Shown here: positions 1,021 through 24,467 of the stretch, in pieces | How positions within the stretch are numbered: position 1 is the stretch's first letter | Layout of the letters: each line of letters begins with the position of its first letter | IMG/VR virus record: IMGVR_UViG_3300047089_000307 | Location: 94,652-158,651 of that record | Direction: 5' to 3' (one strand) | Source: a virus | Length of the DNA stretch: 64,000 nt | Notes under the pieces: generated by a model | Seen by the model: only the letters and a program-made list of their open reading frames with translations | The model's database searches: none | What the model was told of the DNA's origin: nothing | Program-made: the position numbers and the translations under genes

Positions 1021-1365
1021 GTGACTGCATACGGCTTTGACCTGGACGGGACGCTCGATCGCCCGGCGCTGGCCCGGCTGGCGAATGACCTGCACGACGT
1101 CGGCCATGAGGTCTACGTGGTAACCGGCGGCCTGGGCGATACAGGCGAGTGGACGCTGCCGGCCCGTGAGCGCACGCTGGCCGCGCTCGGCGTGCGCTAC
1201 ACGGCGATCATGCGCTGCATTGACCCGGACATCCGGCAGCTGGGCCTCCTGAAAGGCGAGCAGTGCGCCCGGCTGGGCATCGCCGTCATGGTCGATGACG
1301 ACCGGCTCTACCTGGACGGCGTCGCCGCCGCGGCCAGTGACGTCGTGCGGCTGCTGGTGCTGTGA
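1021..1365 (+). CDS. HAD-superfamily phosphatase-like protein
   Basis: FDLDGTL motif I, VVTG, MVDD; GTG start after GAGGAG. Confidence 0.75.
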   Translation: MTAYGFDLDGTLDRPALARLANDLHDVGHEVYVVTGGLGDTGEWTLPARERTLAALGVRYTAIMRCIDPDIRQLGLLKGEQCARLGIAVMVDDDRLYLDGVAAAASDVVRLLVL

Positions 1366-1700
1366 TGAGCGGCGTGAGCGGCGCGGACCTGTACCGGGAA
1401 CTGGTCGGGCAGGCGTACGAGCGCCGCAGCGACTGGCGCAATGACCACCGGAGCCTGTACTGGGTGATGAGCCATGAGTGTCGCAATGTCATCATGCAAC
1501 TGTGCTCACCGCAGGGATGGCCGGCCCTGGAGCTGTCGCGCACCGAGGGCCTGCGGGACATGCTGTTCGGCTACCCGGTCATCGCCGGGCCTGCCTACGG
1601 CCCGCCGCTGCTGACTGACGACCCGCTGGCAGCGGCGCAACGCGTGCAGCTGATCGCGCGGAACCTGACGCTAGCGGAACTGGCTAGTGAGCCGGGCTAG
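1362..1700 (+). CDS. hypothetical protein, ARxLTLxE C-terminal motif family; paralog of 3600..3950
   Basis: Ends IARNLTLAELASEPG; shares DL..LV, WVM, G.PV and G.P.LT.DP with 3600..3950. Confidence 0.7.
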   Translation: MMSGVSGADLYRELVGQAYERRSDWRNDHRSLYWVMSHECRNVIMQLCSPQGWPALELSRTEGLRDMLFGYPVIAGPAYGPPLLTDDPLAAAQRVQLIARNLTLAELASEPG

Positions 1701-2563: not shown

Positions 2564-3607
2564 GTGGCCGCAGTGACCACGATCTCCTTCACCGCCTCCC
2601 GCTTTAACTTCGCCCCGCCGCCGTCCGTCGTGGCCAGCGTGCTGTCCGCCCGGGTGCCGCTCGCGGACCGCTACGTCACCGGGGCCTGCCAGGGCGGGGA
2701 CGCCTGGATCGGCGCCTGGCTGTACGTGACCAGGCCGGCCGCTGAGCACGTCGTGGTGGTCCCGTGTAACCGCCGTCAGGTCGACCCCTGGTGGACGCGC
2801 ACCGGGAGCCTGCCGCTGGTGACCGTCATCGACATGCCCCCGGGCACCAACTACGCCGACCGGAACCGGGAGCTAGTGGCCAGGGCTGACCAGGTCTTCG
2901 GCTTCCCGGCATTCCCGGAGGAGGACCCGCGGTCGCAGCGCAGCGGCACCTGGCAGACGATCCGGATGGCCCGCGACGCCGGGAAGCTGAGGCTGTGGCA
3001 GTGCGTCACGCCGCCGTACCGGGGGCAGGTTGAGGCCCTGACGGGGGAGCCGGACCTCGCGGCGCCGGCCACCGTCTCCTATCGCGAGGAGCTCGCGCGG
3101 TTCATGACCGCGGAGGGCGAGGAGAAGATCCGGATGCTCTTCGCGGAGCCGGATGAGCACCAGCCGTGGTGCGGAGACGCGTCGCTGAGCCGGCCGGACG
3201 ATGAGTGCACTTGCGACGTCACCCCGGAGATGCAGTACGCGCAGCGCGGCCAGTCCGAGGCGGAGCAGGCCCGGCGCGGGGATGACGGACTCACGGACGA
3301 GGAGCGCGCTGAGTACGCCCGGCGCTTCTGGGCGGTGGCCAATGCCCCAGTCTCGCCCGAGATGCGGGCAGCCACGCGCCGTCGCCTTGACTCCGCGGCC
3401 ATCGGCGAGTCCCGGCACCAGGCCCGGCGCGGGGATGACGTCGAGGCATGGCTGAGGGGCTGGCGGGACCTGCTCGGCGGCGACCCCTGGCACGCCGTGA
3501 ACGGGCTGCTGGATGATTACCGCAAGCGGGCCGATCTCGGGATTGCCCTCGATGACGATAGCGAAGCAGGGCACGCCGCTGGGCACGGAGCCGGCGAGGA
3601 TGAATGA
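2564..3607 (+). CDS. protein with N-terminal SLOG/DprA-like domain
   Basis: VTGACQGGDA, RNRELV, RSGTWQTIRMARDAG motifs. Confidence 0.6.
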   Translation: MAAVTTISFTASRFNFAPPPSVVASVLSARVPLADRYVTGACQGGDAWIGAWLYVTRPAAEHVVVVPCNRRQVDPWWTRTGSLPLVTVIDMPPGTNYADRNRELVARADQVFGFPAFPEEDPRSQRSGTWQTIRMARDAGKLRLWQCVTPPYRGQVEALTGEPDLAAPATVSYREELARFMTAEGEEKIRMLFAEPDEHQPWCGDASLSRPDDECTCDVTPEMQYAQRGQSEAEQARRGDDGLTDEERAEYARRFWAVANAPVSPEMRAATRRRLDSAAIGESRHQARRGDDVEAWLRGWRDLLGGDPWHAVNGLLDDYRKRADLGIALDDDSEAGHAAGHGAGEDE

Positions 3608-3950
3608 CCCGTCGCAGGTGAGCTACCAGGACCTGTGGGCGTACCTGGTCGATGAGTACTACCGGTTCCGGCTCCTGGACGCCCCTCGCCGCGGGCCCTG
3701 GGCCTGTCACCTGTGGTGGGTAATGCACCCGCGCTGGCTGCACCCGTGCCTGAACGCAGAAGTAATGAACATGAGCTACCGCATGTACCAGGAACAGCGC
3801 AAGAGCCCGGAATGGCTGCTGACCGGCATCCCGGTCCTGGAAGGCATGAAGTTCGGGGAGCCGAAGCTGACGCGGGACCCGGCCAGCCTCAGCAAGGGGC
3901 CGTACCTGCACGCCCGGCCGCTGACGCTGCGGGAGCTGATGAGCCGGTGA
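3600..3950 (+). CDS. hypothetical protein, ARxLTLxE motif family
   Basis: Ends LHARPLTLRELMSR; overlaps the upstream stop. Confidence 0.7.
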   Translation: MNDPSQVSYQDLWAYLVDEYYRFRLLDAPRRGPWACHLWWVMHPRWLHPCLNAEVMNMSYRMYQEQRKSPEWLLTGIPVLEGMKFGEPKLTRDPASLSKGPYLHARPLTLRELMSR

Positions 3951-10629: not shown

Positions 10630-11219
10630 CAAGGCAGTTCACCATCGTGCTGACCAGCGCTGACGGGCAGGTTAACTCGCGGTTCGAGTGCGAGGCGCAG
10701 ACCCCGCAGGCTGCGCTGACGGCTTTCGCCGGCGCGGGACCGAGGACGTGGCTGTACGGCCTGACCGCTGACGAATGGCTGCACCTGGCCAGCGAGGGCG
10801 AGGACAGCGAGGTGCAGCCCTGCTGCGGTAACGTCGGCGAACTGCGCGACCTGCTGCGCGCCCTGGCCACGTTCCAGTCCCGGGATGACACGGGGTGGCA
10901 GCTCAGTATCGGCCGCCACATCCTGGAGAACCTGGACGGCGACGGGGACGGGCACGGCCTGGGCGACGCCGCCGCGTTCCCGCTGCTGCACCGGGTGCTG
11001 GACGGCATCCGGGCGCAGCAGGCCGGCCAGGGCCCGGGCGAGGAGTCGTCCCACCGGGGGGCAGGTGACCGGCCCTGATCATCTTCGGCAAGTGCACCGC
11101 GTGCGAGGGCACCGGGGACCACAACGCCTGCGGCGGGGACGGTTGCCGGAACTGCGACTGGACGGGCACGTGCAGCGCCTGCGGCGGCCGGGGAACGAAA
11201 TGACGGGGGTGGCCGCCCT

Positions 11220-11801
11220 GTGACTGAGGAAGCGCCGCGGGCCGGGCCTGCCCTGACCGCGGCACAGCAGGACCTGCTGCGCCGGCTAACCCAGGGCCCG
11301 CAGCCGGCGGTAACCTGCGTGCTCGGCGTCGACCCCGGCCCTGTCACGGGCATCGCGTGGCTGTGCTCCGGGCCGGGGCAGCGTCCCCTGGTCTTCCAGT
11401 GCAATGCCGCGGGCGCGTACCCGCTGGCGAGCTGGCTGCTGGAGGCCAGCGAGGGGCCGGCCCGGATCATCTGCGCCGGCGAGCGGTTCATCACCGGGCG
11501 CGGCGCCGGGGCCAGGGGCGCGAACGCTACCGCCACCCGGCAGGTGATCAGCGACCTGGACCGGCTCGCCAGGTGGCACTGGCGCAGCGCAGCAGAAGTG
11601 AAACCCTGGGCAACCGACGCCCGGCTGAAGGCGGCAGGGCTGCTGGAGCAGTGCCACGGCATGCCGCACGCTGCCGACGCGTGCAGGCATGCTTTGTTTG
11701 CCATGATCCACGACTGTGGCATGCCCGATCCGCTCTCGCGCAAGGCGGGCACGCTCTATGCCCGGTCACTGTCGCTGGAAGAACTGGAGGGCTTCTCATG
11801 A
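11220..11801 (+). CDS. RuvC-like Holliday junction resolvase with appended ARSLSLEE tail
   Basis: VLGVDPGPVTGIA, ERF, AAEVK, HAADACRH. Confidence 0.75.
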   Translation: MTEEAPRAGPALTAAQQDLLRRLTQGPQPAVTCVLGVDPGPVTGIAWLCSGPGQRPLVFQCNAAGAYPLASWLLEASEGPARIICAGERFITGRGAGARGANATATRQVISDLDRLARWHWRSAAEVKPWATDARLKAAGLLEQCHGMPHAADACRHALFAMIHDCGMPDPLSRKAGTLYARSLSLEELEGFS

Positions 11802-12218
11802 TGCCGGCTGACGGGGAGAGCAGCTTCCGGATGGTGCTGACCTCGAATTCCTGCCCGCGCTGCGGCGCCATCACCTACCTCCGGCTGTCCGCCTCCGCAG
11901 AGGGAAGCGTCGCCGTGGCCGGCGAGCAGCCACCGCCCGTCGACAACCGGGCGCAGCACGCGGACTGGCACGAGCGGACGGGCACGTGAGCGCCTGGCGG
12001 CTAGTGGCGGGCCTGGCCGGCGTGGCGGCGGCACTCGCGGCCGTGATCCTGGCAGCCCAGGCGGTCGCCAGGGGATCAGTGCTGGAGATCGCGTTCCTGC
12101 CCGCGCTCATCGGGCTGCCCGCCAGCGTCGCGGTGATCATCCTTGAGCCGTCCTCCCCGGGCGAGGATGATGATGACGACGAGGATGACGAGCCGGGCTG
12201 GCGCGAGCGGACGGGCAC

Positions 12219-12581
12219 GTGAGCAGGCACCGGGGCCGGATAGGGTTCCGGGGCGGCTGGGCGCTGACGTACGAGGAAGACCGCTGGTGGCCGTCCTGGG
12301 AGAGTGCTTCCCGGCTGCACTGCGTCACCTGGACGCTGGACGACGTGGTCATGACGCAGGCGCAGTACGAGCGGGCCGCCGCCGTCCGGGACGACGCTCC
12401 GTACTGGCTGACCGCCATGGCAGCCGGGCTTGCGATGACGGCCGGGCTCGCGATGGTCAGCGGGATCTTGCTCAGCGAGGCTGAGGCGATGGCCATCCGG
12501 CGCGGCGCTCACCCGCTGACGGTGCTGCTGCCCCGGACCTGGGCCCGGCCGCTGACCCTGGCGGAGATGATGGGTGCATGA
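12219..12581 (+). CDS. paralog array member (ARxLTLxEM family)
   Basis: RGGWAL...RTWARPLTLAEMMGA. Confidence 0.8.
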   Translation: MSRHRGRIGFRGGWALTYEEDRWWPSWESASRLHCVTWTLDDVVMTQAQYERAAAVRDDAPYWLTAMAAGLAMTAGLAMVSGILLSEAEAMAIRRGAHPLTVLLPRTWARPLTLAEMMGA

Positions 12582-12889
12582 GCGTGCTGGCGCAGCGAGA
12601 CGGCTGGACGCTGGAGACAGGCCCGCCTTCCCCTCCTGACTTCCCCTGTGCTGCGTTCATCCTGCGCGAGCTGGCCGTGACGCAGGAGCAGTGCGCCGCC
12701 ATCTTGTACCGCTGCGGCCGGACCGGGTCCTGGTTCCGGGTCCCCGTCCCCGGCGGATGGGTCATGACGCTGGAGCTGGACCGGGCGGAGGCGCACGCGA
12801 TCGGGCTGCTGGGACGCGACCCGCTGACGGTGCTGGCTCCCCCGCTGCACGCCCGGTCACTGACCCTGAGGGAGATGATGAGCGCATGA
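12578..12889 (+). CDS. paralog array member
   Basis: LAQRDGWTL...LHARSLTLREMMSA. Confidence 0.8.
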   Translation: MSVLAQRDGWTLETGPPSPPDFPCAAFILRELAVTQEQCAAILYRCGRTGSWFRVPVPGGWVMTLELDRAEAHAIGLLGRDPLTVLAPPLHARSLTLREMMSA

Positions 12890-13206
12890 GCGTGCTGGCG
12901 CAGCGAGACGGCTGGACGCTGAGCGCGTGGCGCTGGCCCCGGAGCGGCAGCCTGCTCCGGCACGTGTACCAGCTCCGGCACGTGTACCAGCTGGACGGGC
13001 TGACGGTAACGGACGCGCAGCTCCAGGCCATGACCGCCCGGTCATCGCACATGTGGTGGGTAAGCCCTGAGTGCCTGATCATGCACGGCGTCAGCCTCAC
13101 CTGGGAGCAAGCCCGCGCAATCCAGGACGGGGCAAATCCGGTAACCGTGCTGACCCCTCGCTTCCGGGCCCGGTCACTGACCCTGAGGGAGATGATGGGC
13201 GCATGA
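12886..13206 (+). CDS. paralog array member
   Basis: LAQRDGWTL...FRARSLTLREMMGA. Confidence 0.8.
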   Translation: MSVLAQRDGWTLSAWRWPRSGSLLRHVYQLRHVYQLDGLTVTDAQLQAMTARSSHMWWVSPECLIMHGVSLTWEQARAIQDGANPVTVLTPRFRARSLTLREMMGA

Positions 13207-13586
13207 GCAGGATAGTCATGAAACGACGGCTGCGGTGCGGCGCGGTGCTGACCGCGCAGGAGCACTGGGAGCACTCGATGGGCGTCATGTCGCCAGGGCA
13301 CCGGGAGGTACTCTTCACGCTGCATGACCTCCCGGTGACGCCCGGAGACGCCGAGCGGCTGATGTCGGCGCGACCGCGGCCATGGCGTCGGGGTGCAGGC
13401 AGCTGGATTACCAGAACCTTCATGCACCAGTACGGCGCGAACGTCACCCCCGTCTTGTCCCTGTCCCGGATTCAGGTCACGCCGCAGGAGGCGGACCGCA
13501 TGCTGTCCGGGGAGCACCCGATGGCGGTGCTGCTGCCGCCGCTGTACGCGCGGTCGCTGACCCTGGCGGAGATGACGGGCGCATGA
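13203..13586 (+). CDS. paralog array member
   Basis: ...LYARSLTLAEMTGA. Confidence 0.8.
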   Translation: MSRIVMKRRLRCGAVLTAQEHWEHSMGVMSPGHREVLFTLHDLPVTPGDAERLMSARPRPWRRGAGSWITRTFMHQYGANVTPVLSLSRIQVTPQEADRMLSGEHPMAVLLPPLYARSLTLAEMTGA

Positions 13587-13912
13587 CGTGCAGCGAGATG
13601 CTCGCCGCCCGGGACGGCTGGACGCTGGACGCGGCGTGGGAGGGCGCCTTCCCGTACGGGACCGTGTCCTCCCCGGTTCGCTGCACGCTGTCCGGGCTGC
13701 GGGTGACGAGGAGCCAGGCCCGCGCCATCACCACGGGCCGGGCCGTGCTCACCGTTGAGCACGAGTACCCGTTCGGCAGCTTCTTCCTCCTGCACCTGGA
13801 GGTCACGCCGGCCGAGGCTCACGCCATCGCGGGCGGCAGGCACCCGCTGAACGTGCTGATGCCGCCGCTGTACGCGCGGTCGCTGACCCTGGCGGAGATG
13901 ACGGGCACGTGA
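13583..13912 (+). CDS. paralog array member
   Basis: ARDGWTL...LYARSLTLAEMTGT. Confidence 0.8.
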   Translation: MTCSEMLAARDGWTLDAAWEGAFPYGTVSSPVRCTLSGLRVTRSQARAITTGRAVLTVEHEYPFGSFFLLHLEVTPAEAHAIAGGRHPLNVLMPPLYARSLTLAEMTGT

Positions 13913-14355
13913 CCCGCGTCACCGGCAGGAACGGGATCATGTACCTCGGCACGGGGCCGGGCGCGCTGCTCGGCCAGCCCGTGGCTTATATCCCGGACTG
14001 GTCCATTGACTTCGACGTCCTGCCGGCAGCACTGACCGGGGTGACGCTCGCCGAGCGGGACGGCTGGACGCTGCGGGCCGGCACCGCCCCGTACGGTCAC
14101 TTCGGCGATACGCGCCCGCTGTACGTGCTGGAGAACCTGATGGTGACGGCCGGGCAGGCGAGCCAGGTCATGCGGCACCGGCCGGGGGACCTGCCCTGGC
14201 ACCTGGGCCACGGCAACGGCCCGCTGCGGCCGATGAAGATGGTGCTGACCACGGAGGAGACGGTGCGCGTCTGGCGCGGGGCCGACCCGCTGGCCATGCT
14301 GGCCCCGCCGCTGCGCGCCCGCGCGCTGACCCTGGAGGAGATGATGAGGGAATGA
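13909..14355 (+). CDS. paralog array member with tail-tube-like N-terminal extension
   Basis: ERDGWTL...LRARALTLEEMMRE. Confidence 0.8.
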   Translation: MTRVTGRNGIMYLGTGPGALLGQPVAYIPDWSIDFDVLPAALTGVTLAERDGWTLRAGTAPYGHFGDTRPLYVLENLMVTAGQASQVMRHRPGDLPWHLGHGNGPLRPMKMVLTTEETVRVWRGADPLAMLAPPLRARALTLEEMMRE

Positions 14356-14765
14356 GCTGGGACTGGCCGGGCTGGCGACTGGCCCGCACCTTCCACGGCA
14401 GCCGGAACGGGATGGCCCGGCGCGATAACTGGACGCTGGAGACCTGGCAGTACGAGGCGCCGCTGACCTGTTACTCCGAGTACCTCATCCCGCGCGTGAC
14501 CACCGACGTGCGGTACGTGCTGTCCGGCCTGACGGTGACGCCCCGCGAGGCGGATGCCATCACCGGCCGTCGCCTGGGGCACTTCGCGCCGCCGCGGGCC
14601 AGCGTGCACTACGGCTACGGCCCTGGCCCGGTCCTGGTGATGGACGACATTGAGCTGACCATGGACGAGGCGGCGGCCATCGTAGACGGCACCGACCCGG
14701 TGGCCGCGCTGGCGCCGCGGATCAGGGCACGGCCGCTGAGCCTTCAGGAGATGATGGGCGCATGA
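14352..14765 (+). CDS. paralog array member
   Basis: RDNWTL...IRARPLSLQEMMGA. Confidence 0.8.
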   Translation: MSWDWPGWRLARTFHGSRNGMARRDNWTLETWQYEAPLTCYSEYLIPRVTTDVRYVLSGLTVTPREADAITGRRLGHFAPPRASVHYGYGPGPVLVMDDIELTMDEAAAIVDGTDPVAALAPRIRARPLSLQEMMGA

Positions 14766-15013
14766 GCGAGGGCTACTCCTGGCGGGACCTGACGGGCTTC
14801 CTGGTGTCCGTCCACCGTGACCAGGCCGCCCGGCAAGAAGCCGGGGACCGCCAGGTCGCGGCACTGCGGGCGTCGGTCTGGCAGCTCCAGCGCCAGGCCG
14901 GCGTGATGACCCTGAATGAGGTGCGGGCCCGGCAGGACAGGGCGTCCCTGCCGCCCGGCACGATCGTGCTGCGCGCCCGGCCGCTGAGCCTTCAGGAGAT
15001 GCTAGGCACGTGA
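14762..15013 (+). CDS. ARxLSLxEM-tailed small protein
   Basis: ...GVMTLNEVRAR...LRARPLSLQEMLGT. Confidence 0.75.
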   Translation: MSEGYSWRDLTGFLVSVHRDQAARQEAGDRQVAALRASVWQLQRQAGVMTLNEVRARQDRASLPPGTIVLRARPLSLQEMLGT

Positions 15014-15044
15014 CGCAGGACAACGGAAAGCGAGTGCGCACGCC

Positions 15045-15419
15045 ATGCGGCCACCAGGAATTACCTACGATGCCCCCCGGCCGCAGCCGTGGACGCTGAC
15101 CCAGGTCCGGGACTACCCGGGCGGGCCGCGGCGGTGGCAGCTGGCCCTGGAGGTTACCGGCGGCGAGCAGGCCAGGGCGGTCCGGCTAGCGCGGGGCGGC
15201 AGCGGGGTGATGCGGACCCGGGACGACGGCGTCATGCGGTACCCGGAGGCTTACCTGTTCGAGTTCATCGACGTCACCGCGGAGGAGATGCTCGCCATCG
15301 CGGGCGGGGCCAGCCCGCTGGACGTGCTGCTGCGCGGCCCGGACGGGGCGCGGCAGTGGCTGTGGCCGCTGGTGCTGCGCGCCCGGCCGCTGAGCCTTCA
15401 GGAGATGCTGGGCACGTGA
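15045..15419 (+). CDS. paralog array member
   Basis: PWTL...LRARPLSLQEMLGT. Confidence 0.75.
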   Translation: MRPPGITYDAPRPQPWTLTQVRDYPGGPRRWQLALEVTGGEQARAVRLARGGSGVMRTRDDGVMRYPEAYLFEFIDVTAEEMLAIAGGASPLDVLLRGPDGARQWLWPLVLRARPLSLQEMLGT

Positions 15420-15589
15420 GCCACGGGGACTACGTGCAGCTCCTGGCGAGGCTGTACCTGGCCGGGATCATCACCGCAGCCAAGGCCCGCTGCCTGCATG
15501 AGGCCGCTTTCACGCGATGGCGGGCAACGACCGGGGGGCCGCTGCCGCTGGCAGCCCGGCCACTGACCCTGGCCGAGATGCTGGGCTAG
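15416..15589 (+). CDS. ARxLTLxEM-tailed small protein
   Basis: GTGA overlap; ends LAARPLTLAEMLG. Confidence 0.7.
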   Translation: MSHGDYVQLLARLYLAGIITAAKARCLHEAAFTRWRATTGGPLPLAARPLTLAEMLG

Positions 15590-15996
15590 TACCTGGCGAT
15601 CTTCCGGACGACGAGAGCGAGTACGCCGATGATCAGGACCACGATGACCCAGGCAGCCAGGTCGGATGCCCACACGGGCAGTATCCCGGGGCCGGGGTGG
15701 TAGCAAGAGGGATCGCCGGGCCGGCCCGTGAAGCCGTGGCACCGGCCCAGTGTCCCTGCCATCAGCCCGGCCCGGCCAGCAGGTGACCGGGTGGGGCTGG
15801 GTACTCATCGCCGTGTGCGTATCGGCGCTTCTCTTCCTGGCCGCGTGCTGGGCGGGCACTTGCTCGGTGAAGGGGTGCCGTGAGCCGGTGCGGTTCCACT
15901 CGATGGCGCGGCCGGGGACGGACGTGTGCGCCCGGCATTTCTGGGAGGAATGGGACGACGGTTACCGGTGCTGACTGACCCTGCCATGCGCGCGGG

Positions 15997-16821
15997 CTAC
16001 TCCGCCTTGTCATACGCTGCCCGGATCTTCGCCAGCACGGCGTGCTCGGAGCCGCGGCCCTGCGCGGCGCCGGCCAGCTCCCAGGTGCCGGCCGCCTTCA
16101 TCGCCCGCATCAGGCGCTCGTGCTCCAGCTCGGCGTTGCCCAGGGCCAGGCCCACCGCCTTGACCAGCGTCACGTTCGTGCGCCGCTTGTCGTCACCGGG
16201 GAAGCACTCGCGCAGGGCGCGCAGCGTCTCCCGTAGCCGGGGCTCGCCGCCGATGGCCAGCACGTAGGTACCCGCGCTGATGCCGATCGTGGTGGCGCTG
16301 TCGGTCCGCTGGCCTATCGTGAAGCCCTGCTCCTCGAACATGCGGTTGACGGTGAACGCGAGGCTGCCGTCATCGAACTCGATGTCACTGCGGGCCGCCT
16401 CGGTCAGCGTCACCTTCTTCAGCCGCTGAAGGTCCTGGAAGATGCGGTTCTCCTGGGCCAGCGTCAGGCCGCGGAGCACCCGGCACGGGACCAGGTGGTT
16501 CGGGCCGAACTTCTCGTGCAGCCAGTGGTTGGAGGCGTTGCCGTCCAGCGTCCAGTACTGGTGGCTGTCAGAACGGTAGGACACGACGCGCGGGCGCAGT
16601 AGCACAGGATTGTAGTCCTGGAACGCCTTGGCCCTCGCCCTGAGCGTTGACAGGTACCTGACGCTGTCCTCGGGGCGGTTGCGCTGCGGCCCGCGCAAGG
16701 TGGCGAACGCGGACACCAGTATGCCGACCGGCAGCATGGTGTCCTCGTAGTTCTGCGGCGGAGCCTCGGGGTAGATGACCTTCTTTGCCAACGGAATCCC
16801 TTTCAAGGGGTAGCTTCTCAC
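15997..16821 (-). CDS. ParB/Srx-like (DUF6551-like) protein
   Basis: VVSYR...YWTLDG...VPCRVLRGLTLAQENRIF resembles a ParB N-domain; TATGAT -10 just upstream (possibly leaderless). Confidence 0.55.
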   Translation of the reverse strand: MRSYPLKGIPLAKKVIYPEAPPQNYEDTMLPVGILVSAFATLRGPQRNRPEDSVRYLSTLRARAKAFQDYNPVLLRPRVVSYRSDSHQYWTLDGNASNHWLHEKFGPNHLVPCRVLRGLTLAQENRIFQDLQRLKKVTLTEAARSDIEFDDGSLAFTVNRMFEEQGFTIGQRTDSATTIGISAGTYVLAIGGEPRLRETLRALRECFPGDDKRRTNVTLVKAVGLALGNAELEHERLMRAMKAAGTWELAGAAQGRGSEHAVLAKIRAAYDKAE

Positions 16822-16847
16822 TCACATCATACTCTAAGAGACTACCT

Positions 16848-18089
16848 TTACCATCCGGCGATAGTCAGTGACCGCTCCGCCCTCGTCACCGCGGTGTACA
16901 GCCACCGGCTGCGCTCGCCAGTTCCGGGCGCCGGCCAGCCCTCCTCAATGACCAGCACCTTCTCGGCCGAACTTCCCTGTGCCTTGTGGGCTGTGAGTGC
17001 GTAGCCATAGTCAAAGAGCGCGACATGACGGTCCCTGACGCAGGATGCCTGGAACTTCGGGTCACCGAACGGCAGCGCTGATACCGTCCCCGACCACGGG
17101 CGGAGGAGGTCCTCGCATTCGATGACAGCCTGGAATGTGGCCTCACTACCGGGCCCTGTTACCCCTCCCACGGCCAGGATGGTCCCGCGCTGACCGTTGT
17201 ACAGGCCCTCTGCGTGGTTATTGCGAAGGCAGGTCACCGTATCGCCGACCTGCGGCGGCCCGGACCGGCCGTGCCACGCGCGCATCAGCTGGTTGTGCGC
17301 TGTCCTTGCGGCGTTAGTCGCGCAGATGATCAGGTCCGCCTCAGCCGGGTGCAGGCCGGCCAGCCCGGACTCATGCTCGGCCATCGTCAGCTTGACCGCA
17401 TCCGGCCCGTACCAGCCGGGCGGCACGTGGCCCTGCTCGCGCGCCCACCGCGCCATGGTGAGGATGGCCATGCCAGACGGGCTTTCCTCGTTCTGCCGGT
17501 GGATCTTCTCCAGCCGGATATCCGGGCTGGCCATCAAGTTGAAGGACGAGCGGACGGGCGGCAGCTGGCCGTGGTCGCCGACCGCCAGCACCGGAACGCC
17601 ATGGCCGGTCAGGTCCTTCCAGAGCTGCTCGGGGATCATCGATGCCTCGTCGGCCACGACCAGTCCGATGCCGGCGAGCGGCTCCGGCGCCGGCGTGAAG
17701 CTCAGCTGGCGGCGCACCGCGCACTCCCAGCCCCGTCCGGCGTGCGCGCGGCACTGAACGTCCGCCTCCTTCATTACCGTGTCACTCTCGGTGCACACCG
17801 TAACCTCACAGGCACGGTAGAGCAGCCGGTGCAGGGTGGACGCATGATCCGGGGGGACGTCACCGGGGAGCTTGCGCCGCAGCACGGACGTCGCCTTACC
17901 GGTGTAGGCGGCGAACGCGATCCGGATATCAGGCAGGAACTGCGGCAGGCAGCAGATCAGGCTAGTCTTCCCGGTTCCCGCCAGCCCGCCCAGGGTCAGC
18001 GGCGGCCAGCCCCCGGCCTCATGCCACGCCAGGATCTGCGTGAGCGCGCGGCGCTGGTCCGCGGACAGGGTCTCCGTCAGGTCAGTCAT
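16848..18089 (-). CDS. RecD/Dda-like SF1B DNA helicase
   Basis: GLAGTGKT Walker A, STLHRLLY, DEASM, GDHGQLPPV, LEKIHRQ, TAHKAQGS, LYTAVTRA; start MTDLTETLSADQ after TATCTT -10. Confidence 0.93.
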   Translation of the reverse strand: MTDLTETLSADQRRALTQILAWHEAGGWPPLTLGGLAGTGKTSLICCLPQFLPDIRIAFAAYTGKATSVLRRKLPGDVPPDHASTLHRLLYRACEVTVCTESDTVMKEADVQCRAHAGRGWECAVRRQLSFTPAPEPLAGIGLVVADEASMIPEQLWKDLTGHGVPVLAVGDHGQLPPVRSSFNLMASPDIRLEKIHRQNEESPSGMAILTMARWAREQGHVPPGWYGPDAVKLTMAEHESGLAGLHPAEADLIICATNAARTAHNQLMRAWHGRSGPPQVGDTVTCLRNNHAEGLYNGQRGTILAVGGVTGPGSEATFQAVIECEDLLRPWSGTVSALPFGDPKFQASCVRDRHVALFDYGYALTAHKAQGSSAEKVLVIEEGWPAPGTGERSRWLYTAVTRAERSLTIAGW

Positions 18090-18112
18090 AGACCCCAAGA
18101 TACCGGTAACAG

Positions 18113-18142
18113 GGCCCGGCACCGAGTGAAACGGCGCCGGGC
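18113..18142 (-). terminator. GC-rich hairpin closing the GGY-NN array
   Basis: gcccggcaccg-agtgaaa-cggcgccgggc inverted repeat next to a half copy of the array repeat. Confidence 0.55.
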
Positions 18143-19753
18143 TCCCGTGCCTGCCTAGCCAGGCCCGTCCTAGCCGAGCCATTCCTGCCGGGGCGGGCCG
18201 CGCCCAGCCCTGCCTAGCCTTGCGACGCCTGCCGAGCCTTGCCCAGCCGCGCCACGCCAAGCCCTGCCTGCCCAGCCGAGCCTAGCCCAGCCGCACCACG
18301 CCTAGCCATGCCTGCCACGCCAGACCTTGCCCTGCCTAGCCATGCCTGCCGGACCTCGCCTCACCTAGCCAAGCCATGCCGCGCCTGCCCTGCCGTGCCG
18401 CGCCGGGGCCTGCCGAGCCTAGCCATGCCTGCCTAGCCGAGCCCTGCCGAGCCTAGCCATGCCATGCCTGCCAGTCCTGGCCTTGCGTCACCCCGCCTTG
18501 CCCCGCCGTGTCCATCCCTTTTACGCCGGATGCTGCTGCTCCCGTGCCTGCCCGGCCACGCCAGACCTCGCCGCGCCTAACCTCACCTGCCCCGCCATGC
18601 CAGACCTTGCCGCGCCTAACCTCACCTGCCGCGCCAGACCTCGCCATGCCCTGCCGTGCCTAGCCGTGTCCATCCCTTTGCGCCGGATGCTGCTGCTCCC
18701 GTGCCTGCCGCGCCGCACCTGGCCATGGCTAACCTCACCGCGGCTGCCGAGCCGATCCCAGCCGTGCCTAGCCGTGCCGGCCCTGACCTCGCCTGCCCTG
18801 CCGCGCCGCGCCTGACCCAGCCAGGCCACGCCATGCCTGCCGCGCCGACGCGCGCCACCCCGTGCCAAGCCACGCCCTGCCTGCCGGTCCCCGCCTAGCC
18901 CCGCCTGGCCATGCCAGCCCGAGCCATGCCTGCCTTGCCAGACCTTGCCTCGCCGTGCCTTGCCGTGCCTGCCCGGCCTCGCCACATCGCGCCATGCCTC
19001 TCCTTGGCCAGCCTCGCCATGCCTGCCCCGCCTGGCCTCGCCGGACCCTGCCCTGCCGCGTCCATCCCTTTACGCCGGATGCTGCTGCTCCCGTCCCTGC
19101 CGGTCCCGGCCTAGCCTCACCGAGCCTGACCTGCCTGACCGCGCCATGACGCACCGAGCCTTACCGGTCCCTGCCTGCCATGCCACGCCACCCCGTGCCA
19201 AGCCCTACCTGCCCTGCCGCGCCGCGCCCTGCCGTGCCGTGCCTCGCCTGCCGCGCCTGGCCCTGCCGCACCGCACCATGCCACGTCCATCCCTTTACGC
19301 CGGATGCTGCTGCTCCCGTGCCGGCCAGACCTGCCGAGCCATGTCGTTCCGCTCCGCGCCATGCCCTGCCTGCCAAGCCACGCCCCACCCCGCCGAACCG
19401 AGCCATGCCTGCCAGGCCGTGCCGAGCCGCGCCTAGCCACGCCACGCCATGCCTGCCGGGCCATGACGCACCGCGCCTTGCCGCGCCACACCGTGCCTGC
19501 CCCGCCTTGCCAAGTCCATCCCTTTGCGCCGGATGCTGCTGCTCCCGTGCCTGCCCCGCCTAGCCAAGCCTTGCCACGCCGCGCCTTGCCTGCCGGGCCG
19601 GACCCCGCCGGGCCGGACCATGCCGAGCCGCACCATGCCGTGCCTGCCGGACCGGACCACGCCACGCCGCACCATGCCGTGCCTCGCCTGCCGCACCAAG
19701 CCTCGCCGGACCCCGCCTTGCCATGTCCATCCCTTTCAGCCGGATGCTGCTGC
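18113..19753 (-). ncRNA. non-coding GGY-NN pentamer array (putative guide-RNA array, VIPR-type vrRNA)
   Basis: Minus strand reads GGC AA GGC GG GGT CC GGC GA GGC TT GGT GC GGCA...; blocks separated by GGCA; 38-nt repeat at 18510, 18668, 19060, 19285, 19514 and a partial copy at 19725; downstream of a Cas7-like gene. Confidence 0.85.
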
Positions 19754-20203
19754 CTTCTTCACCTGCGCCTCGTGCTCGGCGATGACCTCGGCAAGCTCCT
19801 GCCAGAACTCGGGGTAGTCGCGGTACCGCTGGGCCATGGAGCGGACCTCGCGGCGGATGCGCAGCAGGATCAGGCCCTGCTCCTGCGTCGTGAGCGAGGT
19901 GACGCTGGAGTACGTGCCGGGCGGCGAGGGGATGCCGATCATCCGGTCGGCCACGTACTTGCGCATCATGACCGCGCGCTGGCCGCCGGACGCGACCTCG
20001 CGGACGACGGCCACCCGGTAGCTGCGGATCAGGCCGCGGGCCTCCTCCAGGCGGCGCTGCGCCGCGGCGATGGCGTCATCCCAGGTGAACAGCCCGTGCA
20101 GCGCGCTGTCCTCCGGCCGTGCTGCCGCCACGACCTCATCGGCGTGCAGCTTGCCGCGGGAGTCCTCCAGCCCCTTCAGGGCCTTCAGTACCTCATCCCT
20201 CAC
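19736..20203 (-). CDS. accessory protein coupled to the Cas7-like gene
   Basis: GTGA overlap, AAGGAG RBS; LHGLFTWDDAIAA...EARGLIRSY motif; stop codon lies inside the first array repeat. Confidence 0.85.
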   Translation of the reverse strand: MRDEVLKALKGLEDSRGKLHADEVVAAARPEDSALHGLFTWDDAIAAAQRRLEEARGLIRSYRVAVVREVASGGQRAVMMRKYVADRMIGIPSPPGTYSSVTSLTTQEQGLILLRIRREVRSMAQRYRDYPEFWQELAEVIAEHEAQVKKAAASG

Positions 20204-20892
20204 AGGACTATCTCCTTGACCTCGGCGTCGTCCGGCACCCGGAACGTGCCGTAGGAGCCAGTATTGGATTCCTTGCTGGCCGGGCGCCACTCGCCGATGC
20301 CCGCGAAGCCGGCGGCGTCCACCAGCGCGATGACGGACTCCAGCGTCAGCGAGTTGCGCACCCAGACCACCTCCAGCACCGCCGACCACGGCCAGTACTC
20401 CGGCCGGAAGCGGATGTCGGCGACGCCGGTCTCGTTGCGCGCGTAGTCCTGGCGCATCACCGCGGTGGCCGGGACGAGCGCCGACTCCTCGCCGGTCCAC
20501 TCCCCCCAGACGGGGACCAGCAGCGTGCGGTTCGCCTGGTCGGTGCCCGGCTCGCCGTTGACGAAGATCATCCGGCGCAGGTCCGTCATGGGCAGCTTGG
20601 AGCCCTTGAAGAACCGGGCCGCGTCCACGATGGCGGCCTTGAAGCCGACCGAGGGGAACGCGGGGGCGCCGCCGGGGAGCAGGTGCTGGGCGTCGCGGAA
20701 GTTCTGCTCCGGGTCCTTCGGCTGGCGCTCGACGGGCTTGCCCATCTGCCGGTCGAGCATGATCTGCTGGGCCTTGGCGCTGAACTTGTTGGTGATGAGC
20801 GGGGTGAGGCCCTGGACGGGCACCCGGATCATGGAGCGGCCGAGCCGCTGGAGCGAGATCGCGCCCGTGGTGGTGGCCTTCGCTGGGGGCAT
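20200..20892 (-). CDS. stand-alone Cas7/RAMP-like protein (Vipr-like effector)
   Basis: V.GLTPLI, FPSVGFKAAIVDAA, RPEYWPW and C-terminal G-rich loop AGFAGIGEWRP...GSYGTFRV typical of the RAMP fold; no other cas genes. Confidence 0.8.
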   Translation of the reverse strand: MPPAKATTTGAISLQRLGRSMIRVPVQGLTPLITNKFSAKAQQIMLDRQMGKPVERQPKDPEQNFRDAQHLLPGGAPAFPSVGFKAAIVDAARFFKGSKLPMTDLRRMIFVNGEPGTDQANRTLLVPVWGEWTGEESALVPATAVMRQDYARNETGVADIRFRPEYWPWSAVLEVVWVRNSLTLESVIALVDAAGFAGIGEWRPASKESNTGSYGTFRVPDDAEVKEIVL

Positions 20893-21850
20893 CAGGCTTC
20901 CCTTTCTTCTTTACATGGACTGACTGATACCCCACGATACTCTAAGACTGCTATCCTGGACTACATGAGCACTAAGGGCATGAAGGGTCACGGGGGCATC
21001 GATCCGTATGCAGGCAACGGCTGGTCCTCCCTGTACTGCCACGACTGTGAGCAAACCTGCTCCCCGGCTAGCCCGTGCGACCACTGCGAGCCGGAGGTCT
21101 GCACCAGCAAGGGCCGCGTGATCTACCGGGGGCCTGAGCGAGTGCAGGGGACAGGGGGATGGGAGCGCGAGCCGTGAGCTACCAGGGCAGCAACCGCAAT
21201 GACGAGAAGGCACCGGATGAGGTGACGGGCACGCTGCTGGTCACGGTCACCGTATACGGCGGGACGCTGGCGGACGCGGCGACCGCGCTGTCCAGTTACC
21301 GGGGCAAGGGCTGGGGCCGGGAGATGACCGACCTGCTAAATGGCGGGGAGTTCGAGGTCATCGCCGCTGACGTCGCTAAGGACGTCACGGCCGGCGACGC
21401 TGATCCTGACGTCATGAGCGAGCAGGAGCTGCGCGAGGAGATCACCCGGGTCGTCCTCGCGCAGCGAGCAGACTGCGCGGAGCACCCGATGCCGTTCCCG
21501 CGGCCGTCGTGCTGGGCGTGCGCCCGCAACGGGGCCTTCCACCGGGCGGCGCTGCTCGCGGCGGGCCGCTGGCCGGCCGCTGACCCGGTGACGTACGTGC
21601 TGCCCGCTCAGCCGGGCCGCTGGCCGGCCGCTGACCCGGAAGGAGCTGATGACGAGACGGCCGCGCCAGCCAGGCACAAGGCACGCGTGCGCAGCACCGG
21701 CCTGCGCTATGACGGCGTGCGGCTGTGGCGCTGGGCCTGCCCGCACTGGGACCAGGGCCGGAACCGGAACTGCCGCGGCGGCGACTACGGGTCCTGGGCC
21801 ATGGCCGTCCGTGACGCCGTCCGGCACGCCGGGTCAGGCGGCACGGCCTG

Positions 21851-22180
21851 GTGAGTAATCGCCACGGGCTGGCCCGGGACGGCTGGGGGCTGCCCGTCGC
21901 CGGGGACGGCTGGACGCTGACCGTGGAGCCGCTGCGCGGCCGTGACAAGTACGTCCGGTTCGCGCTGCGCGGGCCGGTCGCAAACGTGACGCCCGGCGAG
22001 CGGGCCGCGCTGCGGGTGTTCCAGGCACCGGGCGGCTGGCCGGCGATAGGCGTGGACGGCGGCATCGAGGTGAGCTGGGAAGAGGCGCAGCTGATCCGGG
22101 GCGGACGCGACCCGCGGCACGTGCTGTGGCCGCCGCTGCGGGCCCGGGCGCTGACGCTGGCGGAGATGATGAGCCGGTGA
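21851..22180 (+). CDS. paralog array member
   Basis: GDGWTL...LRARALTLAEMMSR. Confidence 0.8.
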   Translation: MSNRHGLARDGWGLPVAGDGWTLTVEPLRGRDKYVRFALRGPVANVTPGERAALRVFQAPGGWPAIGVDGGIEVSWEEAQLIRGGRDPRHVLWPPLRARALTLAEMMSR

Positions 22181-22500
22181 ACCGCCTGCTGCTCCCGGGC
22201 CCGCGGCCGTCAGGAAGCTACCCGGTGCCGGAGGAGTACGCGCAGCGACTGCTGCGCGCGGCCGGGTGCACCGGGGCGATGCTCCTGGGCTGGCGCGACG
22301 GGCTAGGGCCGCGCTGCCGGATGTGCGGCCGGGTCGCCGTCATCCCCACGGCCGCGCTCTGGGAGCGCATCGCGGGCTGGCGCGTCCCTGACCCCGCGTA
22401 CAGCATGCGCGAGCACGCCCGCTGGGCGCTGGCCGACCCGGAAGCCAGCCGCGCCGTCATGGCCGGGGGCGCGGTCCTGCTGGAGATGATGGCGAGATGA
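22177..22500 (+). CDS. hypothetical protein (degenerate LLEMMAR tail)
   Basis: GTGA overlaps; CxxC. Confidence 0.6.
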   Translation: MNRLLLPGPRPSGSYPVPEEYAQRLLRAAGCTGAMLLGWRDGLGPRCRMCGRVAVIPTAALWERIAGWRVPDPAYSMREHARWALADPEASRAVMAGGAVLLEMMAR

Positions 22501-22823
22501 CCGTGACGCGGGCGCGCGACGGCTGGACGCTGCACATCGAGAAGAGCCCGCCCGGCAGCCGTTTCGTGAACCGGACCTGGCTGGACGGGCTGGCCGTCAC
22601 CCGGGAGCAGGCGCATGCCATCATCACCGCGGGGGGCGCGGAGCGCACGTGGACGCTCGCGGGATACCACCAGGAGTGGCCGGCCCATGTGCTCATCCTG
22701 GACAGGGTCGGCGTGACCCGGGAGGAGTACCTGGCGATCCTGGGCGGGCGCGATCCGGTGAGCGTCCTCCTGCCGCTGCTGCGGGCCCGCGCGCTAACGC
22801 TGGCGGAGATGATGGCGCAGTGA
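22497..22823 (+). CDS. paralog array member
   Basis: ARDGWTL...LRARALTLAEMMAQ. Confidence 0.8.
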   Translation: MTVTRARDGWTLHIEKSPPGSRFVNRTWLDGLAVTREQAHAIITAGGAERTWTLAGYHQEWPAHVLILDRVGVTREEYLAILGGRDPVSVLLPLLRARALTLAEMMAQ

Positions 22824-23210
22824 CGATGACCCGGATGCTGGCGGCGGCGCACAGTCGCAATCACGACGAGCGTCCCGGCGACTGCGGCCGGAGCCGTTGC
22901 GGTCACCGGCACTACGACGCCTGGCGCGGGACTGGCGGAAGCCGCCTGCGCCGGCGCGGGCAGCGCGCCCGGGAGCGCCGCCTCGTCACCCGTGAGCTGG
23001 CGGAGCTGATGGCGCAGTGACGCAGGACATTACCCTGGCGGTCATCTCCGGCGCGGCCAGCGCGGTGATGCTCGTCCTGGCGCGCGGGATGTGGACGCAG
23101 GCGCTCCGCGACGCGGTGAACCTCCTCGGCGGCCTGCTGGCCGTGCTCTGCGTCGTGGCTGCCATCGGCGCGGCACTCACGGCAGGATGACCTGGAGATG
23201 ATGACGGGGG

Positions 23211-24467
23211 CTAGGCTGCCGAGGGCAGATCATCTAGCCGGTCGACTTCAGCCTCTTCGCACATGTAAATTGCTGCCTTATGCCGACCAGCAGTCTCAAC
23301 GATGCCAGCAGCGTTTTTAGCTAGCATCTCTATCCGCTGACGATGCTGGCTAATCGTAGCCGTTCCCCAGGTAACCATCGTGCCGTCCCCGAGCGCGAAC
23401 CGGGTGCTGAGCAGCTCTTCCGTTACCTCGATCCGGGTCTTCCTTGCTACGTCAGCGATGAGCTCATCTGTCCGAAGCTTAACGGGACCTCCAGGGTAAA
23501 ACGTCTGAGCTAGCCACCAGTCGTCGGGCGTCCAGCTCTCAAGCGCTGTTACCCCGTGCTTAGAGCACAAACCGCCTGCGACGCTCGCGCGATGGCAATC
23601 CCTGGGCTTCTGCCCCTTCACCGTTAGCTGCCCGGTGCATTCACGACGACCATGCCTTTCACAGAGCCTGCTCGCCTCTCGGTTAACTTCGTTGCGAGCC
23701 AGCCGATCCCGGCGAGCCTCCTCGGTAAGAACTGCCATGTCCTCCCGCACCTGCTGAAACCACCCGTCAAACCGGCCTGCGCACCAGCGGTGAAAAGCCA
23801 GGCTTCCTGGGAAGGTCGAACCGCTGAAGTAATCAGGAAAATACGTGTGCAACCAGCTGATTTCTGTAGCAGGATCGTCATACAGGCACTGGAAGAATTC
23901 TTCACTGCCCGCCCTCGACTCCCGGTTCTTCTGCTCCCGCTCCGCTTCTTCGCGTTCCCGGTCCCTCACTTCCTGCTCCTGCTGGCCCCGCAAGGCACCG
24001 ATGGCCCTCCTGTAAGAGAGCGGAAAACCGGGGTTATCCTGGTATTGCTCCAGGAACTTTCGTGCTTGCGCGGCCACCTCTGCATTGTCGGAGTTCATGT
24101 CGTCTGTCAGCCGCTGGGAAGCTTCCTGAGCTTGCTGCTCATACTCACGTGCCCGTTCCTGCTCAGCTTCACGTCCTAGCCGCTGTCGCTCTTGCTCAGC
24201 TGCGCGGGCCTCTTGCATCCGCTTGACTGCCAGGCTTACGGCACGCTCCTCAGCTTCCCGGGCCAGTCGGCGGCGATGACTGACCACGAAGGTCGTCAGC
24301 ATGGAGATGGCGAATGCGCGAAGCTGCGGTACCTCCATTTCTGCTGCGATGTTTGCGCTCACCGTCCTCGGCTCCATGCCTGGATGCTCGTCGGCATGCT
24401 CCTCAGCCAGGGCGACATACCTGCGGTAAGCCTCTTCCGTGACCGTCTCCGTCATAGACCGCATCAT
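23211..24467 (-). CDS. hypothetical protein, lower GC (recently acquired)
   Basis: 418-aa ORF with a coiled-coil region and atypical codon usage, antisense to its neighbours. Confidence 0.7.
   Translation of the reverse strand: MMRSMTETVTEEAYRRYVALAEEHADEHPGMEPRTVSANIAAEMEVPQLRAFAISMLTTFVVSHRRRLAREAEERAVSLAVKRMQEARAAEQERQRLGREAEQERAREYEQQAQEASQRLTDDMNSDNAEVAAQARKFLEQYQDNPGFPLSYRRAIGALRGQQEQEVRDREREEAEREQKNRESRAGSEEFFQCLYDDPATEISWLHTYFPDYFSGSTFPGSLAFHRWCAGRFDGWFQQVREDMAVLTEEARRDRLARNEVNREASRLCERHGRRECTGQLTVKGQKPRDCHRASVAGGLCSKHGVTALESWTPDDWWLAQTFYPGGPVKLRTDELIADVARKTRIEVTEELLSTRFALGDGTMVTWGTATISQHRQRIEMLAKNAAGIVETAGRHKAAIYMCEEAEVDRLDDLPSAA

Follow-up and report, generated by a model that had tools for sequence, protein, structure and literature searches.

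To our knowledge, short peptides shared at protein ends, by which a range of dissimilar proteins reach a single partner, have been described in only a few model phages (the T4 internal proteins, the T4 clamp clients, and the T7 acidic tails). Hub-binding C termini are carried by T4 gp43, gp33, and gp55, which dock on the gp45 clamp, and by T7 gp2.5 and gp4, whose tails are acidic; bacterial clamp-binding peptides follow the consensus QL[SD]LF or QLxLxL, with an aromatic residue or Leu at the last position. The capsid-targeting sequence (CTS) of T-even phages is portable to foreign proteins and is removed by the prohead protease. The T-even internal proteins that bear it are hypervariable, fast-turning-over small proteins that share only this short conserved terminal peptide (PMC3012670). 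Unrelated proteins are also known to bind one site of an HK97-fold shell protein by a similar terminal peptide, as do a phage scaffold and CpmB (PMC5644958) and the cargo-loading peptides of encapsulins (PMC8346489, PMC11866011). Repeated elements next to gene starts are also known at the DNA level: in Cluster K mycobacteriophages, the start-associated sequence (SAS), a 13-bp consensus without an assigned function that contains the Shine-Dalgarno (SD) core, lies 3 to 7 bp from the starts of many nonstructural genes (PMC3203893). Finally, Tab and Tai of prophages and satellites are small blockers of virion assembly, and Tab activity targets the tape measure (PMC10884400, PMC11364771). Here, we analyzed a short C-terminal peptide (A-R-x-L-T/S-L-x-E-M), referred to below as the tail, that is shared by many small proteins of an uncultured phage represented by the linear 158,651-bp IMG/VR record IMGVR_UViG_3300047089_000307; most of its bearers are encoded in the last 64 kb of the record (bases 94652–158651, 64,000 nt), referred to below as the window.

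The record has a G+C content of ~70% and is estimated to be ~75% complete. Its ~240 genes, called by the periodicity of G+C at third codon positions (GC3), include a head module of the HK97 type that consists of a portal (genome 21023–22672), a prohead protease, and a PF05065 capsid protein (genome 24050–25300), tail genes for a terminator, a major tail or tube protein, and a tape measure, a PrimPol-DUF5906-PolA fusion, a RecD-like helicase, and a class II aminoacyl-tRNA-synthetase-like gene. A megablast search of window positions 11000–24000 against INPHARED phages and PLSDB plasmids returned no match, and neither did a tblastn search of one family member (see below) against INPHARED phages. 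The strict tail motif, R.L[TS]L.E[ML], is found 17 times in the six-frame translation of the whole genome. All 17 copies are located on the plus strand, at a C terminus, 2 to 5 residues ahead of the stop codon, while 0.05 copies are expected from composition and 200 codon-block shuffles yielded 0.055 copies on average and never more than 1. The window contains 15 of the copies; the other two are at genome positions 20100–20396 and 51434–51763. With two degenerate tails (22177–22500 and 22820–23020), 17 window genes are tailed, which agrees with the number given in a preliminary description of this DNA, and the genome-wide total reaches 19 of ~240 genes (~1 in 13). The observation of a shared tail is thus confirmed and is stronger than first noted.

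To distinguish conservation of the peptide from that of the underlying DNA, codon usage was compared within the genome and between relatives. Arg in the 17 tails is encoded by CGG (13 cases), CGC (2), or AGG (2), Leu by CTG, CTA, or CTT, Glu by GAG or GAA, and Thr/Ser by ACC, ACG, AGC, or TCG. At the fixed positions, all codon changes are synonymous or stay within the motif, and none leaves it. Synonymous variation in the tail codons, which had been put forward in support of a protein tag, is therefore real. Proportions of synonymous (pS) and nonsynonymous (pN) differences were then calculated for eight orthologue pairs with two close relatives, L030 and L008 (85 to 95% nucleotide identity). 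In the tails, pS was 0.11 and pN was 0.046 (a ratio of 0.42), and all seven nonsynonymous changes fell at the two variable positions or were T↔S swaps. The rest of the same genes had pS of 0.156 and pN of 0.10, and for the bodies of family members alone pN/pS was ~0.9. Since synonymous divergence in the tail is similar to that elsewhere while the fixed residues are kept, selection acts on the peptide and not on the DNA: conservation is not limited to SD nucleotides, synonymous sites enjoy no special protection, and the fixed residues are protected inside proteins that otherwise evolve near-neutrally or under diversifying selection.

The tail DNA had also been described as doubling as the SD sequence and the stop/start overlap for the next gene. 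This holds for 12 of the 17 tails, whose DNA closes with a stop/start overlap (ATGA or GTGA) and has GGAG 11 nt upstream of the following start codon, but not for the remaining five, which have no overlapping downstream start. Genome-wide, 68 gene pairs overlap by 4 or 1 nt. Only 10 to 12 of them use the tail; the others embed the SD sequence in unrelated C termini, and the 11-nt GGAG spacing is at the long end of their range. Because 56 of the 68 overlapping pairs are tail-less, the tail is not needed for translational coupling.

Ten bearers have in common a full domain of ~100 residues [hidden Markov model (HMM) E ≤ 5e-15] whose alignment displays, as noticed earlier, an RDGWTL motif and a twice-repeated L.VT..(Q/E)A.AI motif. 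The remaining bearers match only the last 12 to 20 positions of the family profile, in line with the previous remark that unrelated proteins carry the tail too. A profile search of 1.8 billion representative proteins yielded 99 family clusters, all from metagenomes and nearly all of 90 to 150 residues. Most end in R.L[TS]..E[LM] followed by 1 to 5 residues; the farthest clusters end differently, in a ...Y-R-L-x-A-V-P... strand. In an alignment of 52 family sequences with a mean column identity of 20%, just four columns are invariant, a Pro and three tail residues (R, L, and E). No Pfam family better than E 0.06, no PHROG at E ≤ 0.1, and no NCBIfam at E ≤ 0.01 matched the domain; the RDGWTL family is undescribed in the libraries searched. 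An AlphaFold2 (AF2) model of the member at 13583–13912 [predicted local confidence (pLDDT) of 86, predicted TM score (pTM) of 0.71] is beta-rich with two short helices, and its tail has a pLDDT of ~78. The model has no clear fold neighbor: the best Foldseek hits had E values of 0.18 (PDB) and 0.04 (BFVD), and the best Z score in a wide VIA-align comparison was 4.5. Two long profile matches were rejected as true members: P0067 is a low-complexity repeat protein, and P0085, a metagenomic protein of 2679 residues, is a fibre-like repeat protein. The latter contains many copies of V-G-I-T-x-E-Q-A-x-x-I and matches the profile with E 1e-4 over the L.VT..EA.AI motif, probably through convergence of a short helix motif. 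On the minus strand, at window positions 38824–39084, an 86-residue protein (family profile E 0.03) contains an internal sequence that resembles the tail, L-L-P-R-L-A-A-R-N-L-V-L-D-A-L, and continues for 15 more residues; it may be a decayed tail copy on the other arm.

Outside the family, the tail is found on enzymes. No sequence-level match to PDB chains or Pfam was obtained for the product of the gene at 11319–11801. By Foldseek, it has the RNase H-like RuvC fold: its top 12 matches were all RuvC chains (E 1e-5 to 7e-4, probability 1.00, TM 0.51 to 0.59), among them 4ld0, 7w8d, and 1hjr (E 1e-5 to 3e-4), and came from T. thermophilus, D. radiodurans, E. coli, and a lactococcal phage. D5, E55, and D120, and also H124, are invariant in an alignment of 10 RuvC-like sequences and lie roughly where catalytic residues of RuvC would be expected. 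Among IMG/VR contigs, eight orthologues stop at ...D-P-L-S-R-K-A-G(-A-L) and have no tail; the proteins of this phage and of L030 continue for 14 to 16 further residues that include it. In the predicted model, this extension has a pLDDT of 49 to 66, consistent with a flexible appendage.

Other relatives carry the tail on other enzymes. In G001, a 122-kb relative, six proteins have the variant R-A-R-K-L-T-M-A-E-L, and an HNH endonuclease encoded 46 kb away (21729–22328) has the tail R-A-R-A-L-T-R-A-E-L and ends in TAA. L016, a 109.7-kb JGI contig with the same synteny of replication genes, has seven tails in 20 kb, one of them on a dCMP deaminase (1184–1630) whose homologue in the phage studied here (genome 35392–35877) has none. 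The flavor of the tail is genome-specific: LTL.EM here, RARKLTMAEL in G001, and LT[RMH].EL in L016. The RuvC-like, HNH, and dCMP deaminase bearers thus indicate that the tail was gained on different enzymes in three lineages.

The bodies of several bearers resemble the phage's own virion proteins. Bearers were compared by BLAST with the phage's own proteome, and significance was judged against 200 shuffles. The scaffolding, capsid-body, and tube matches (Table 1) exceeded all 200 shuffles (shuffle maxima of 27.3 bits for the capsid body and 26.9 bits for the tube). The portal match of g164 and the tape-measure match of g066 score level with the best shuffle or barely above it, so that their sequence likeness is suggestive. 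In an all-against-all search, no tail-less small protein matched the capsid, tube, portal, or tape measure at E < 1e-4. The two bearers with capsid-body similarity, g131 and g136, are 33% identical in their bodies, while their tails agree at seven of nine positions and differ synonymously; P0107, a close orthologue of g136, has also kept the tail. A search for a capsid protein more similar to the g131 fragment than that of the phage itself found none, a weak piece of evidence on the idea that the fragment is a decoy of a rival's capsid. The scaffolding-domain copy is followed, by GTGA overlap at its stop codon, by a 91-codon Cys/His-rich open reading frame (genome 20393–20668), and ~350 nt of apparently noncoding DNA separate the latter from the portal gene, which starts at genome position 21023.

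Table 1. Tail-bearing genes and their similarity to virion proteins of the same phage. Positions refer to the window unless marked as genome positions.
Gene or product	Position	Strand	Tail, context, and basis	Similarity to own virion protein
g131, tail-only bearer	1362..1700	+	ends A-R-N-L-T-L-A-E-L plus 5 residues	major capsid protein residues 273–354, in PF05065; 32% over 84 aa; 38.9 bits
g136, tail-only bearer, paralogue of g131	3552..3950	+	GTGA overlap with next gene	same capsid-protein region as paralogue
RuvC-fold Holliday-junction resolvase-like protein	11319..11801	+	tail is an added C-terminal extension, codons about 11754–11798	
Family member 1, tailed	12219..12581	+	alignment, family HMM	
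Family member 2, tailed	12578..12889	+	alignment, family HMM	
Family member 3, tailed	12886..13206	+	cassette missing in close relative L030	
Family member 4, tailed	13203..13586	+	alignment, family HMM	
Family member 5, tailed	13583..13912	+	alignment, family HMM; AF2-modelled	
Family member 6, chimera	13909..14355	+	tube-protein-like N terminus (37 residues), then RDGWTL domain, then tail	first 37 residues, major tail protein N terminus; 54% over 37 aa; 43.5 bits
Family member 7, tailed	14352..14765	+	alignment, family HMM	
g164, 83-aa tail bearer	14762..15013	+	weak/partial family match; no overlapping downstream start	weak match to portal motif, portal residues 356–387; 34% over 32 aa; 27.7 bits
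Family member, tailed	15045..15419	+	alignment, family HMM	
57-aa tail-only bearer	15416..15589	+	ends TAG; no coupled downstream gene	
Family member, tailed, second cluster	21851..22180	+	alignment, family HMM	
107-aa protein	22177..22500	+	degenerate tail ..L-L-E-M-M-A-R; no family-profile match; cassette missing in close relative L008	
Family member, tailed, second cluster	22497..22823	+	alignment, family HMM	
66-aa protein	22820..23020	+	degenerate tail R-E-L-A-E-L-M-A-Q; swapped in L008 for an unrelated 56-aa gene with intact tail	
98-aa bearer coupled to large-terminase gene	genome 20100–20396	+	scaffolding-domain-like body	capsid-protein N-terminal scaffolding (delta) domain, residues 9–61; 43% over 54 aa; 35.0 bits
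g066 bearer	genome 51434–51763	+	tape-measure-like stretch	tape-measure residues about 1165–1237; 35% over 75 aa; 29.3 bits

Comparison with the two close relatives revealed how cassettes are gained and lost. Tail-coding repeats are 33 to 114 nt long. The third family member, which L030 lacks, is flanked by neighbors whose tails share 72 nt of overlapping homology. The breakpoints around the 22177–22500 cassette, absent from L008, are at the stop/start overlap and within its own degenerate tail; the gene at 22820–23020 is replaced in L008 (Table 1). Since the breakpoints of cassette gain, loss, and replacement are located at tail junctions, the junction is also a recombination joint, and an earlier proposal, a joint for recombination and translational coupling in a shuffling cassette array, is supported as a second role of the tail, at the DNA level. 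A second, unrelated junction repeat was observed just upstream of the array, at 11961–11991 and 12194–12224 (94% DNA identity over 31 nt), where the genes at 11798–11989 and 11986–12222 share the C-terminal sequence W-x-E-R-T-G-T and then overlap the next start by GTGA, which suggests that junctions are habitually duplicated in this region.

The reading we favor, with roughly even confidence, takes the tail for a docking handle that works at the protein level, originated as the C-terminal segment of the RDGWTL domain, and was spread by recombination at gene junctions. This segment, conserved in the domain, would have become portable in the lineage of this phage, and recombination where the tail codons meet the stop/start overlap would have placed it on other bodies, such as the RuvC-type resolvase and pieces of the phage's own virion proteins (the capsid scaffolding domain, the capsid body, the tube N terminus, and probably the tape measure and the portal); in the relatives, it is found on the HNH endonuclease and the dCMP deaminase. 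Purifying selection on the peptide maintains the tail, which thus acts at the protein level, most likely as a short flexible handle that brings unlike proteins to one common partner; its DNA in addition provides the GGAG box and the ATGA/GTGA overlap for the next gene, as well as the homology for cassette gain, loss, and swap. The parts of this reading that the sequences themselves show are the motif statistics, peptide-level selection, portability, the virion chimeras, and the junction breakpoints. The protein-tag hypothesis made in the preliminary description (a docking, packaging, or degradation tag) is likewise supported in its general form by peptide-level conservation, uncoupled tails, and unrelated carrier proteins.

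That the tail binds a common partner is inferred, and so are the candidates for this partner. The leading candidate is the head-assembly or packaging machinery, because the scaffolding-domain copy is expressed with the terminase, nucleases are packaging-associated elsewhere (RuvC-type and HNH nucleases both are, in other phages), and the arrays resemble T-even internal-protein loci; the alternative candidate is a protease or unfoldase. A complex prediction with the family domain (residues 1 to 94) and the last 30 residues of the RuvC-like protein gave a score of 0.00; it was run without controls and was counted neither way.

Several observations weigh against a docking handle. No partner protein was found for the tail. 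The bearers are mixed (early-region arrays, a late terminase-coupled gene, and enzymes), and no single cellular address is obvious for them. BLAST detected no virion-protein pieces in the tail bearers of G001, and likewise none in those of L016 and L008. Residues after the motif vary in number (1 to 13) and in kind, which is unusual for tags read by their free carboxylate. The tail of the family protein, modeled fairly confidently, may just be part of the fold. Nonfamily proteins may have received their tails from family donors in an already intact state, so that the codon test is not fully independent, and the uniformity of tails within a genome could reflect gene conversion rather than coevolution with a reader.

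The strongest alternative, which we nevertheless consider unlikely, is a structural end-piece with recombination scars: the tail would be the final structural element of the RDGWTL domain and, on other proteins, a passive remnant of deletions or unequal crossovers that joined an upstream gene to the 3' end of an adjacent family gene, kept mainly for the ribosome-binding site and the start overlap. Cassette indels that break inside tail repeats in close relatives speak for this explanation. The order of the tail in the family-domain model and the different R-L-x-A-V-P strand at the ends of distant members are compatible with a structural end-piece, and the second junction repeat (W.ERTGT with GTGA) just upstream of the array also fits. 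In G001, moreover, the family array directly follows the RuvC-like gene, so an in-frame deletion could yield RuvC with a tail. However, the bearers at 20.1 and 51.4 kb of the genome and the G001 HNH gene (22 kb) are tens of kilobases from any family gene, and two of them end in TAA and are uncoupled. Nonfamily tails also retain every one of the six fixed residues although their codons differ synonymously at many sites, and the tails of g131 and g136 stayed conserved while the bodies fell to 33% identity. Finally, the bodies of tail-only bearers are nonrandomly pieces of virion proteins, which scars do not predict.

A more specific form of the docking-handle reading, which we regard as doubtful, has the tail bind inside the procapsid or at the portal and load fast-evolving small proteins for ejection into the next host. 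The bearer at genome positions 20100–20396 is a free-standing, terminase-coupled copy of the scaffolding domain, upstream of the portal, protease, and capsid genes, which recalls the scaffold, CpmB, and encapsulin peptides; competition of the 80alpha scaffold and SaPI1 CpmB for one capsid-protein site offers a precedent (PMC5644958). The arrays are hypervariable, with body pN/pS of ~0.9 and cassette turnover. As in the T-even CTS, a short terminal peptide is found on otherwise unrelated proteins and is portable. Most bearers are located in the replication or early region and not with late genes, many are enzymes or early proteins, and no use is obvious in packaging a dCMP deaminase or an HNH enzyme. 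Unlike the N-terminal CTS, the tail is C-terminal and comes without evidence of cleavage; we claim no sequence likeness to the scaffold, CpmB, or encapsulin peptides.

A broader version of this proposal is speculative and about as doubtful. The tail would be the address label of a phage-encoded sorting system that directs a fast-evolving arsenal of RDGWTL proteins, mimics made of capsid, tube, tape-measure, and portal pieces, and nucleases to the assembling head or packaging vertex. There, these proteins would either be packed for transfer to the next host or influence or disrupt the assembly of virions, whether of this phage or of a rival. Such a system would mirror the T4 capsid-targeting sequence at the C terminus and add a "bait plus handle" architecture to it. 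The combination of a handle with copied virion pieces was not found described in the papers searched. Tab and Tai are a functional precedent only, as small proteins of mobile elements that engage virion components; they are defenses of prophages and satellites, no shared tail has been reported for them, and they are not described as copies of virion pieces.

We also considered hubs of DNA metabolism and known degrons as readers of the tail. The RuvC-like, HNH, and dCMP deaminase bearers would fit a hub comparable to the T4 clamp, but virion-protein fragments are tailed here too, and the motif misfits both QL[SD]LF and the consensus of PCNA-interacting peptides (PIP): a variable residue and then Glu are found at the corresponding positions of the tail. 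No match to PF00712 or PF02768 was obtained when a phage beta clamp was sought in the 158-kb record, which is ~75% complete. A degradation or adaptor tag, through which the tail would recruit a host or phage protease or unfoldase and thereby limit the lifetime of nucleases and virion mimics or deliver mimic-bound proteins to degradation, appears improbable. Its C-terminal position, portability, flexibility on the RuvC-like protein, and potentially toxic bearers (nucleases and fragments of assembly proteins) would suit such a role. Against it, the last 1 to 5 residues are not conserved, unlike in ssrA-type tags, and vary in number and kind within and between genomes; in addition, a gene of the late structural module is tailed, and no protease candidate was found beyond the prohead protease. 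Overall, the motif fits none of the consensus sequences compared, while its logic is that of known shared terminal peptides.

The remaining possibility is a start-associated or coupling signal, or a protein- or RNA-binding site, in DNA or mRNA, with the peptide as a by-product. It resembles the SAS and its extended form (ESAS; PMC3203893) in being repeated in one orientation next to gene starts, and 12 of the 17 tails have an overlap and an upstream GGAG. We consider it very improbable: third and even first codon positions (AGG versus CGG) vary while amino acids stay, and the tail diverges at synonymous sites about as much as other sequence does. The GGAG-to-start distance of 11 nt is extreme among coupled pairs, five tails lack an overlapping start, 56 coupled pairs rely on different sequences, and a scan of IMG/VR with the exact degenerate DNA pattern of the tail gave seven loci, all of them internal chance matches and none C-terminal.

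Other features of the genome were noted in passing. The gene for the 1554-residue fusion, which joins DUF5906 of the primase-helicase type to a family A DNA polymerase, lies at window positions 27210–31874, and its L016 homologue is annotated with a Prim-Pol domain. It adjoins the minus-strand class II aminoacyl-tRNA-synthetase-like gene (25331–26683), which has an HGTP anticodon domain. At window positions 18100–19730 and 19736–20892, a repetitive stretch with a strong GC skew (−0.24) adjoins two minus-strand genes without a Pfam match. In and beside the structural modules (genome 27803–37481 and 52062–52934), a sugar-modifying block encodes an NAD-dependent epimerase, a C-methyltransferase, and several glycosyltransferases, which hints at virion glycosylation.

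Regardless of how the tail is read, the locus is a clean example of a junction that combines coding sequence, an SD sequence, and a start overlap and serves as a joint for cassette shuffling. If one partner reads the tail, as the docking-handle reading supposes, the tail would provide an entry point to a block of otherwise uninterpretable "dark matter" genes, accessible by a pull-down with a single peptide, and may become a tool for addressing foreign proteins.

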